From contig CAVWGN010000001.1 of the NCBI GenBank assembly GCA_963754655.1, positions 1,280,001 through 1,344,000 of the forward strand: DNA of 64,000 nucleotides. The letters are read 5' to 3'. Shown here piece after piece: positions 43,133 through 44,887 of this stretch. The notes below the pieces were generated by a model. The model did no database searches, was not told the DNA's origin, and saw only the letters and a program-made list of their open reading frames with translations. The translations under genes were made by a program, and so were the position numbers. Position 1 is the first letter of the stretch. Each line of letters opens with the position of its first letter. Source of the stretch: an uncultured Chlamydiae bacterium (lineage in GTDB: Bacteria; Chlamydiota; Chlamydiia; Chlamydiales; Parachlamydiaceae).

Positions 43133-43229
43133 GAGACTTTAAATCACCTTACGTATCGGGATCTTAAAAACACCCTGGCAAAAACTCCAGGGTGTTTTTA
43201 TTAAAAATATTTGACACTTGCAGCTCTTT

Positions 43230-43351
43230 GAGGCCGACAGAAAATTGATAATTTCGGACGTATGTAATTTATTTTAACTGGTCGTGAGTATATTGTGAGT
43301 GGTTTCAAAAAATTATTTAAGGTCTGAAATTATCAATTTCCTGTCAGCCTC
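43230..43351. mobile_element. 122-bp MITE with GAGGC(C/T)GACAG termini, copy 1
   Basis: Terminal IRs; near-identical direct copy at 44377-44498. Confidence 0.85.
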
Positions 43352-43385
43352 TTCAGGCTGCATGACATAACTCGTTCATACTCAC

Positions 43386-43785
43386 GGTTAGGGTGTTCAT
43401 TTTGTGCAAAAAATGAGCTTTATTTTCACAATAATTGGCATAGTTGAATTGAAGGTCGCATGTTTATGCCGTCCTTTCAGGACTCGATGTCTTTTTGATA
43501 GAACCCAGGCCTCCGCTTCGCTGCGACCTGGGCTGTAACATAACGGCCCTTCAGGCCTTAACAAGAGATGTTTAAATCCCTCTTCTATAATCCCTAAATC
43601 ATCTTTTTGTTAAGGCCTGAAGGGCCGTTATGTTACAGCCCAGGTCGCAGCGAAGCGGAGGCCTGGGTTCTATCAAAAAGACATCGAGTCCTGAAAGGAC
43701 GGCATAAACATGCGACCTTCAATTCAACTATGCCAATTATTGTGAAAATAAAGCTCATTTTTTGCACAAAATGAACACCCTAACC
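43386..43785. repeat. Giant perfect palindrome, family A copy 3 (179-bp arms, 42-bp spacer)
   Basis: 43386-43564 is the exact reverse complement of 43607-43785; the spacer is reversed relative to copies 1 and 2. Confidence 0.95.
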
Positions 43786-44357
43786 CAGGGGCAACGTCCC
43801 ATAAGCATCAAGCTAAGAGAAGAGCGTAGGCTACGCGACGCATTCAGTCGCCGCGCCGCTTCGCTCTGGGCTCTAGGTGAGGGGTTTGAGAACCCACCGT
43901 TCGGTCGCCCTCCGGGCTCGGTCACGGTGGGCTATTACCAGTCGTCCTACGGACTCTAGCGGCATTATCAGAACGCCTTAAATAGCATTCAATGGCTTCT
44001 ACATTGCCGCTAGTGGGTCATTTTTCACGCTTCGGCGCATCCTGAAAGACTAAAAACATCTCTAAACTGATCCTTAAAGCCATTTATATAGAGTCTTATT
44101 TCGTTATGCCTACGCCAGATGACCCACTAGCGGCAATGTAGAAGCCATTGAATGCTATTTAAGGCGTTCTGATAATGCCGCTAGAGTCCGTAGGACGACT
44201 GGTAATAGCCCACCGTGACCGAGCCCGGAGGGCGACCGAACGGTGGGTTCTCAAACCCCTCACCTAGAGCCCAGAGCGAAGCGGCGCGGCGACTGAATGC
44301 GTCGCGTAGCCTACGCTCTTCTCTTAGCTTGATGCTTATGGGCGTTGCCCCTGGGTT
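43782..44357. repeat. Giant palindrome, family C (arms of about 240 bp, 97-bp spacer) with IS4-like end module
   Basis: 43782-44021 and 44119-44357 differ by one indel near the outer end; contains CATAAGCATCAAGCTAAG. Confidence 0.92.
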
Positions 44358-44376
44358 TTTGCACTTGCAGTCCTTC

Positions 44377-44498
44377 GAGGCTGACAGGAAATTGATAATT
44401 TCGGACGTATATAATTTATTTTAACTGGTCTTGAGTATATTGTAAGTGATTTCAAAAAATTATTTAAGGTCTGAAATTATCAATTTTCTGTCAGCCTC
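44377..44498. mobile_element. 122-bp MITE with GAGGCTGACAG termini, copy 2
   Basis: Terminal IRs; flanked by TTC on both sides. Confidence 0.85.
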
Positions 44499-44500
44499 TT

Positions 44501-44583
44501 CAGGCTGATGCAGGGGCTCTTAGCTGACAATATTAGACTGCGATCTACTCCTATTGTAAGCTGAGATTTCCTGCATCAGCCTC
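44501..44583. mobile_element. 83-bp MITE-like element with AGGCTGATGCAGG termini
   Basis: caggctgatgcagg...cctgcatcagcctc inverted ends. Confidence 0.65.
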
Positions 44584-44887
44584 GAAGGGCTGCAAGTGTC
44601 AAATATTTTTAATAAAAACCACCCTGGTAAAAACTCCTGTAAACGAGTACGAGTCTTATCAAATCTCTAACTGAGATTTTTCTCACATCAGTTAAAGATT
44701 TTTTTGCTATGCATCTATTCTATAGCGGCGTCAGGGCTAAATGTTTTTTCAGCCTTTCCTTAATTTCTATTTAGTGTATTAACATAACAGGTGATATATT
44801 CTCTTACTAACTCTTTAATGATATCTATTAATTTGATATACTACGTTTACTCTTTTTAATTTAAATTAATTTTTTTAAGGCTGATCA

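Follow-up and report, generated by a model that had tools for sequence, protein, structure and literature searches.

A putative intergenic nest of palindromic repeats between two long genes of a Chlamydiota bacterium

Does the 1.44-kb stretch at positions 43188–44626 of the window analysed here (64,000 nucleotides of an uncultured Chlamydiae bacterium; assembly GCA_963754655.1, contig CAVWGN010000001.1) represent a single transposon or an accumulation of unrelated repeats? The stretch lies within a 1,755-bp spacer between two open reading frames (ORFs) on the same strand, 35846–43132 (2,428 aa) and 44888–49387 (1,499 aa), and an initial annotation, made from the sequence alone, had described it as one coding-free, non-autonomous vehicle or landing pad with ends resembling those of the ISAs1 family of insertion sequences (ISs). 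The absence of coding capacity is borne out, as no ORF in the stretch exceeds 69 aa and none of the seven small ORFs scanned matches Pfam at E ≤ 0.1; all parts of the stretch are non-autonomous. As to its nature, we lean towards an intergenic nest of repeats that accumulated separately, the outermost of which would be a small palindromic element, P, with its left arm split by other palindromes.

The stretch is bracketed by an inverted repeat with tips reading CAGGGTG..., which start at 43188 and, on the other strand, at 44626. Initially given as about 47 bp, this repeat can be followed over 62 alignment columns (43187–43245 against 44566–44627) with 88.7% identity and one 1-nt indel. When 43187–43229 is joined to 44502–44532 and compared with the reverse complement of 44552–44627, 67 of 76 positions are identical, including 38 of the first 39 columns of the rebuilt arms. 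Because the rejoined left arm matches the complement of the right arm in this way, the bracket is best read as the two arms of P, a palindrome of about 171 bp resembling a MITE (miniature inverted-repeat transposable element), with 76-nt arms and a 19-nt loop. The left arm of P is broken, within the CTTC loop of a mini-hairpin termed X (GCAGCC-CTTC-AGGCTGC), by 1,272 bp that hold an element B in two copies and the long palindromes A and C. The parts of the locus follow in order, strandless unless a strand is given.

43165..43200, plus strand: terminator-like hairpin, a perfect stem of 14 bp with an 8-nt loop, followed by a T-run (dG -22.3, z -4.29)
43178..43187: left 10-nt direct repeat GCAAAAACTC, the inner part of a 25-nt repeat at 43164–43188
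43188..43229: outer part of the left arm of P, comprising the CAGGGTG... tip, then AT-rich sequence and, innermost, the left half of mini-hairpin X
43230..43351: B1, an imperfect palindrome of 122 bp that lies in the hairpin X loop, ending in GAGGCYGACAG / CTGTCAGCCTC and flanked by TTT / TTC
43352..43385: right half of hairpin X (TTCAGGCTGCA), then about 23 nt without a repeat match
43386..43785: palindrome A, copy A3, 400 bp, with 179-nt arms (100% identical) and a 42-nt asymmetric loop
43786..44353: palindrome C, 568 bp, 54% G+C, with tips CAGGGGCAACG and a 97-nt loop
44354..44376: shortened second copy of the stretch preceding B (GGTTTTTGCACTTGCAGTCCTTC), with which the 151-nt direct repeat begins
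44377..44498: B2, the second direct copy of B, identical to B1 at 115 of 122 positions
44499..44626: P core, comprising the inner left arm (44502–44532), the 19-nt loop (44533–44551) and the uninterrupted right arm (44552–44626)
44627..44636: right 10-nt direct repeat GTAAAAACTC

All of the components named in the initial annotation are found again, some of them in a different role. The 83-bp MITE that it listed lies within a 101-bp palindrome at 44492–44592 (41-nt arms, 78%) and is re-read here as the centre of P, the core of which folds at -61.3 kcal/mol (z -6.9). The P-type end has the sequence CAGGGTGTT, and the C-type end is CAGGGGCAACG. The two direct 122-bp copies of B described as lying in a hairpin loop are also present, each between GCAGYYCTTY and TTCAGGCTG; the B1 region (43217–43364) folds at -62.5 kcal/mol (z -9.6). 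The similarity between the copies extends over a unit of 151 nt (92.7%), which takes in 20 nt of flank to the left of B and 9 nt to the right; B1 and B2 would therefore be a segmental duplicate and not two separate insertions, and do not constitute the two independent flanking copies that define a composite transposon. With a spacing of 1,147 bp, these 151-nt direct repeats enclose the roughly 23 unmatched nucleotides (43363–43385), A and C. The two abutting giant palindromes are as announced: the A3 arms (43386–43564 and 43607–43785) are identical over 179 nt with 42 nt between them, and the C arms (43798–44021 and 44119–44342) over 224 nt with 97 nt between them, reaching about 240 nt when the imperfect tips (43782–43799 and 44340–44357) are counted. 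The statement that the stretch is built entirely of nested MITEs and palindromes holds for almost the whole of it, which consists of nested or abutting palindromic repeats, and fails for the 23 nt without a match. The inner repeat pattern was reached in none of 100 shuffles, and folding z-scores range from -4.3 to -9.6; folded as single-stranded DNA, 43160–44645 gives a single nested foldback (-722 kcal/mol) that is sealed by the outer arms. Many mini-hairpins have loops that, as read from the sequence, are of UUCG, UCCG or UACG type.

A course of events compatible with this arrangement can be proposed. P would have inserted about 45 nt beyond the end of the 2,428-aa ORF, counted from its stop codon, duplicating some 10 bp, and its left arm would later have been split in the 4-nt loop of hairpin X by 1,272 bp of non-coding palindromes, the insert consisting of B, with a 3-bp TTY repeat, and of A (400 bp) and C (568 bp) between the two 151-nt duplicate copies. 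The parts may have been moved in trans by DDE transposases encoded elsewhere, an IS256-family enzyme being a candidate for A and an ISAs1-type enzyme a possibility for P and C. Hairpin loops and element tips would act as favoured or tolerated landing sites, as is seen for an IS256-family IS within another copy of A, and repeats would pile up between the terminator and the next promoter region because insertion there harms nothing. The left tip of P and an inverted copy of it carried by the flank form a terminator-like hairpin, which probably terminates transcription of the upstream gene, and the arms of the long palindromes, which are kept identical, could be maintained by intra-element gene conversion or by hairpin-templated repair.

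That palindromic elements transpose in this genome follows from exact target duplications at two further loci of the window. A second copy of A, A2, is bounded by an exact 10-bp duplication, AAATAGCCAT, around outer tips of a different sequence (CTGAAGTTTTGC...), and another location holds element E (12780–13099), a 320-bp palindrome with tips GGGTGTGATT... and an exact 9-bp duplication, GTCATCAAG. The loop of A2 is occupied by an IS256-family IS (about 27227–28551), with a transposase gene on the minus strand (27274–28476; Pfam Transposase_mut, 2.1e-143; NCBIfam IS256, 3.1e-114); TTATAGAA(GAG), present once in A1 and once in A3, is duplicated by this IS, which provides an independent instance of the nesting in hairpin loops that had been proposed for the 1.44-kb stretch. 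Element E itself holds an inner palindrome with 74-nt arms and mini-hairpins with GGAA-type and similar short loops. The A family is represented in the window, in both orientations, by the following members.

About 918–1284: A1
27006–28774: A2, interrupted by the IS
43386–43785: A3
54332–54369: a 38-bp mini form

The mini form consists of the tips of A only and is flanked by CCCCGGGG and CCCCGGGC, an 8-nt repeat with 7 of 8 positions identical. The surrounding 54206–54427 is a miniature of the same architecture, in which a 28-nt outer inverted repeat encloses two abutting palindromes, one of them the mini form; the left arm of that repeat overlaps the stop codon of glgB.

Small ORFs are annotated inside other copies of palindrome A, and a 55-aa ORF read from A retrieved six clusters (eight sequences) from a protein collection, with 85–89% identity, all on the same 3,123,268-bp contig; no match to it was found in that collection outside this contig. 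The 69-aa ORF of C gave one more copy, a weak protein-level match on the same contig, which is the sole sign of another copy of C. Such ORF-based counts for A and C take in only the copies in which the annotator called an ORF. No second copy of the P arm or outer repeat, of B, of C or of the P core occurs within the window, and a distant-mode blastn search of a plasmid collection with 43133–44887 found nothing. A 23-mer from the inner part of the outer repeat was matched at nine loci (59–66% G+C) in a scan of 185,579 species genomes, a collection that lacks the present genome; these matches are considered chance, because the similarity is confined to the 23-mer and none has the outer tip. A match of a 35-aa ORF over B1 to one 2,002-aa protein was rejected as spurious, since BLASTP could not align the two. 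In the literature on MITEs in Parachlamydia and on nested MITEs in bacteria, no description of these repeats was found. With respect to the general features of MITEs, A is non-coding, multi-copy and, in A2, flanked by an exact 10-bp duplication, and P, B and the P core have inverted repeats, their copies having been looked for within the window; at 400 bp (A) and 568 bp (C) the giant palindromes are long for elements of this type, and it is in the size, the perfection and the concerted arms of A and C that the nest departs from known bacterial MITEs.

The concerted behaviour of the arms is clearest in A. The six arms of A1–A3 were compared (972–1284 for A1, 27072–27202 with 28578–28707 for A2, and 43386–43785 for A3); 28 of 138 columns are variable, and 25 of these 28 show no disagreement between the two arms of any copy. 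Arm-to-arm identity is 100% in A1 (136 nt) and in A3 (179 nt) and 98% in A2, while the copies differ from one another by 5–20%. All three discordant columns belong to A2, whose arms are separated by the 1.3-kb IS, a pattern that fits correction of one arm by the other through a process that needs a short loop. Alternatively, each copy of A may have been born very recently. Each A arm also carries a two-hairpin module, pointing toward the palindrome centre, that resembles Acido-Lenti-1 (Rfam RF01687), with scores of 35.2–36.4 bits in five of the six arms; all arms lie below the gathering score of 37, and no assignment to the family is made.

1047–1101, 1155–1209, 28584–28638, 43504–43558 and 43613–43667: Acido-Lenti-1-like matches, with the module pointing toward the palindrome centre

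No Rfam family is matched at its gathering threshold anywhere in the window, and the microRNA families that the long hairpins matched far below gathering scores were dismissed as what any long hairpin gives. Acido-Lenti-1 was described from Acidobacteria and Lentisphaerae (PMC2864571). Compared with its seed alignment (PMC2864571), each A arm repeats the pair of hairpins of the motif, down to the letters of linker and loop, whereas the scores remain below 37, the first hairpin of A has a 13-nt insertion, and in A the module forms an inverted pair inside a mobile palindrome. It is conceivable, if rather doubtful, that A and C represent a distinct class of bacterial 'foldback' mobile elements, with an Acido-Lenti-1-type module, arms regenerated or corrected through a hairpin intermediate, and homing to the tips and loops of other hairpin repeats. 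Were this true, the abundant Acido-Lenti-1 family, whose function is unknown, would form the active core of a mobile palindrome found in bacteria of the Planctomycetota–Verrucomicrobiota–Chlamydiota (PVC) group, and such palindromes would perhaps be recognised by an IS256-family transposase.

A relationship between A and the IS256 family is suggested by the tips. Those of A and the right end of the IS in A2 share the block ATT(T/A)TGTGCAAAAAA at the same offset (13–28) from the tip; 14 of its 15 nt are identical, the alignment score was reached by none of 2000 shuffles, and within the window the exact block is confined to A-type tips and that IS end. IS256-family elements generate target duplications of 8–9 bp. 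Compared with such elements and their miniatures, A is alike in the subterminal block at equal distance from the tip and in the 8-nt flank repeat (7/8) of the 38-bp form, and unlike in its tip-most 12 nt, in the lack of a flank repeat at A3 and in the exact 10-bp repeat of A2 around different outer tips. We treat the link as a lead drawn from the sequence comparison.

At the left junction of P the picture is more intricate than the 10-bp target duplication with one mismatch that the initial annotation had reported. The ten-base flanks GCAAAAACTC (43178–43187) and GTAAAAACTC (44627–44636) are identical at 9 of 10 positions, as stated, but they are embedded as the inner part of a 25–26-nt direct repeat (43164–43188 and 44612–44637), the outer 13 nt of which equal the right tip of P; an additional tip copy, in inverted orientation, therefore lies in the left flank, at a distance of 10 nt from the genuine left tip. 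Owing to the overlap between direct repeat and tip, 'CAGGG tip plus 10 bp' and 'AGGG tip plus 12 bp' are equally valid parses. The flank-borne tip copy provides the 5' arm, and the left tip of the outer repeat the 3' arm, of the hairpin at 43165–43200, which starts 33 nt past the stop codon of ORF 35846–43132 and is as stable in none of 200 shuffles. A consensus terminator scan missed this hairpin, which was folded directly and at which transcription of the upstream gene probably stops. At the right junction neither strand folds.

A comparable arrangement of tip and flank is seen at A1, the left tip of which pairs with the end of an S41-peptidase ORF (890–898 with 916–924, overlapping the stop codon at 900–902). 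A CCCNGGG-type sequence adjoins the A tip at six junctions, namely those of A3, of the mini form and of four copies reconstructed from ORF translations (P0018, P0020, P0021 and P0022); in a fifth ORF-derived copy (P0019) the ORF stops too early for the junction to be judged. Possible explanations of these patterns are insertion beside tip-like sequence, remnants of tandem copies, or selection for a terminator.

Several observations weigh against the nest as reconstructed above. The P arm, B and the P core have no second copy in the window and their mobility is not demonstrated, the further copy of C depends on one weak protein-level match on the same contig, and neither A3 nor C has matching flanks. 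Simple transposition of P does not predict a 10-nt repeat within a 25–26-nt repeat that carries a 13-nt copy of the tip. Since the 151-nt repeat includes 20 and 9 nt of the flanks of B, pure nested insertion is insufficient and a duplication or recombination step is also needed. The link between IS256 and A relies on one short A+T-rich block; in an ungapped comparison the A tip and the IS end agree at 19 of 32 positions, a level that about 45 window positions reach, and the IS256-family IS has itself inserted into TTATAGAA, which is not the CCCNGGG-type sequence found next to A tips. The account further calls on arm-to-arm correction and on termination at the hairpin, both of which would have to operate as supposed and are counted against it.

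The reading of the whole of 43188–44626 as one ISAs1-derived, non-autonomous composite that moves by its CAGGG ends with the rest as cargo has its signature in its favour. ISAs1-family ends start with CAGGG and produce 10-bp repeats, as the initial annotation had said, and are 14–22 bp long (PMC11946415; PMC6305408); among nine family loci sampled, seven have CAGGG/CCCTG end pairs, with exact 10-bp flanks in three of the seven. The CAGGGTG tips of P and its 9/10 flanks fit this description, and the inner palindrome C also starts with CAGGGG (CAGGGGCAACG), with 6–7 of 11 further positions equal to those of ISAsp2 ends. The inverted repeat of P, on the other hand, spans the whole arm (62 nt at 88.7%, or 76 nt as rebuilt, against 14–22), beyond CAGGG its tips match known ISAs1 ends at a background level of 3–4 of 11 positions, its flank repeat belongs to a longer direct repeat that makes the parse ambiguous, and C has no flank repeat. 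The comparison of ends has little power, because different members of the family share on average 3.8 of 11 positions beyond CAGGG. A resemblance of the ends of the P core (AGGCTGATGCAGG) to the end of ISArsp11 (PMC6305408) was set aside, since the stretch is not shared by the seven other members with identifiable ends. No ISAs1 transposase is encoded in the element or among the scanned window ORFs of at least 150 aa, where the only transposase is of the IS256 family, and the outer repeat has no second copy in the window and only the chance 23-mer matches in the species genomes; a small palindrome into which other elements inserted later accounts more simply for the outer arms. The ISAs1 signature at P is compatible with the sequence but thin, and the single vehicle of the initial annotation, which is not upheld, seems to us unlikely. 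A slightly less doubtful proposal is that there is no outer element at all and that the bracket consists of two independent inverted copies of one short module, with direct repeats created not by transposition but by duplication on the spot, whether through template switching or slippage between hairpins or through recombinational integration of a 1,147-bp circle. It would account for a direct repeat of 25–26 nt, not 10, that overlaps the tip, for the inclusion of B flanks in the 151-nt repeats 1,147 bp apart, for the lack of target duplications at A3 and C, and for the self-complementary CCCNGGG found repeatedly at module boundaries; it is opposed by the match of the far-left tip to the right arm (38/39 tip-proximal positions), which becomes colinear with the inner arm when the insert is taken out, and by the exact 9–10-bp duplications at two other palindromes, which show classical transposition at work.

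A primary function for the host, as a terminator or insulator between very long genes or as a source of small structured RNAs, with mobility secondary, is in our judgement quite unlikely. The strong terminator-like hairpin directly past the upstream gene, the five A arms close to the Acido-Lenti-1 gathering score, the numerous mini-hairpins with UUCG-like loops and the preserved arm symmetry would suit such a role, whereas every Rfam score lies below the family threshold, A is found in both orientations, copies have target duplications and tolerate an IS in the loop, and promoter-like sites in a consensus scan are at chance level (4 found against 4.2 expected). Perfect arms of 179 and 224 nt are unusual, and long palindromes are hard to sequence, which raises the question of whether they were made by the assembler or by chimeric reads; this is highly improbable given that A occurs at three window loci in both orientations, with copy-specific symmetric variants and the same asymmetric loop, that an IS with a target duplication has entered one copy, and that additional copies at other places on the contig are annotated as ORFs. 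The nest of separately acquired repeats is the reading retained below.

A nest of this kind would not be without precedent, because bunched, mutually inserted repeats are known from pneumococcus: as described in PMC10969869, its BOX, RUP and SPRITE elements are clustered, with insertions of one element in another, and SPRITE is terminator-like. The likeness to the Streptococcus pneumoniae clusters lies in several unrelated small non-coding repeats gathered between genes and inserted into each other, one of them terminator-like; the differences are that the host here belongs to the Chlamydiota, that the families are unrelated in sequence, and that A and C are much longer perfect palindromes (400 and 568 bp). 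A further comparison is offered by the doublets of repetitive extragenic palindromic (REP) sequences known as REPINs, which are mobilised by REP-associated tyrosine transposases (RAYTs) of the Y1 type. REPINs likewise join two inverted copies of a structured G+C-rich module into a long hairpin and are multi-copy, intergenic and lineage-specific, but the elements studied here are 4–6 times longer, and some have 9–10-bp target duplications, which REPINs are not known to have. Exact 9- and 10-bp duplications flank related palindromic elements, which sets these apart from REPs and REPINs, and no Y1-type transposase was detected among the window ORFs scanned.

Repeat nests mark where a genome tolerates insertions, can supply terminators and can cause errors of assembly and annotation. 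That perfect palindromes of 400–570 bp persist in a bacterial chromosome is in itself of interest, and A2, whose arms have been split by the IS and are beginning to diverge, offers a testable handle on how long palindromes are kept up or corrected in bacteria. The near-threshold match to Acido-Lenti-1 offers a lead as to what this abundant RNA family, whose function is unknown, might be.

The genes on either side of the nest, which had been called paralogous giant effector genes whose rearrangement the element could promote, match neither Pfam nor NCBIfam. BLASTP aligns them in several colinear segments with 20–33% identity (best E 9e-09), and from their sequences they are only distant paralogues; at the DNA level no similarity between the two was found at E ≤ 0.01, which leaves repeat-driven recombination between them without a substrate, and the suggested part of the element in rearranging them is not supported. 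In the protein collection, 16 sequences other than the 1,499-aa protein itself are homologous to it, at 35–62% identity. Pfam and NCBIfam scans of the window ORFs place the locus among housekeeping genes and proteins with ankyrin, Kelch/PKD, tetratricopeptide repeat (TPR) and eukaryote-type kinase domains, the eukaryote-type domains (protein kinase, ankyrin, Kelch and TPR) being encoded at 10068–11705, 15483–16715, 1335–4106 and 28853–30838; their presence amid housekeeping genes suggests a host-associated bacterium. In a protein atlas, the nearest clusters to the neighbouring 367-aa ORF (50887–51990) have Chlamydiota as their commonest phylum (scores 0.96–0.98), a lead as to the host and no identification, and the 1,499-aa protein gave no usable match there. 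Tandem coding units are found in two of these genes, about seven of 120 nt at 28830–29752 in the TPR-protein gene (28853–30838, minus strand) and three of 270–290 nt at 2884–3712 in the Kelch/PKD-like gene (1335–4106). Finally, ORFs 32144–32725 and 32595–33512 lie on the same strand and overlap by about 130 nt, and the second alone matches Pfam (metallo-beta-lactamase fold); a wrong start or a frameshift may explain the overlap.

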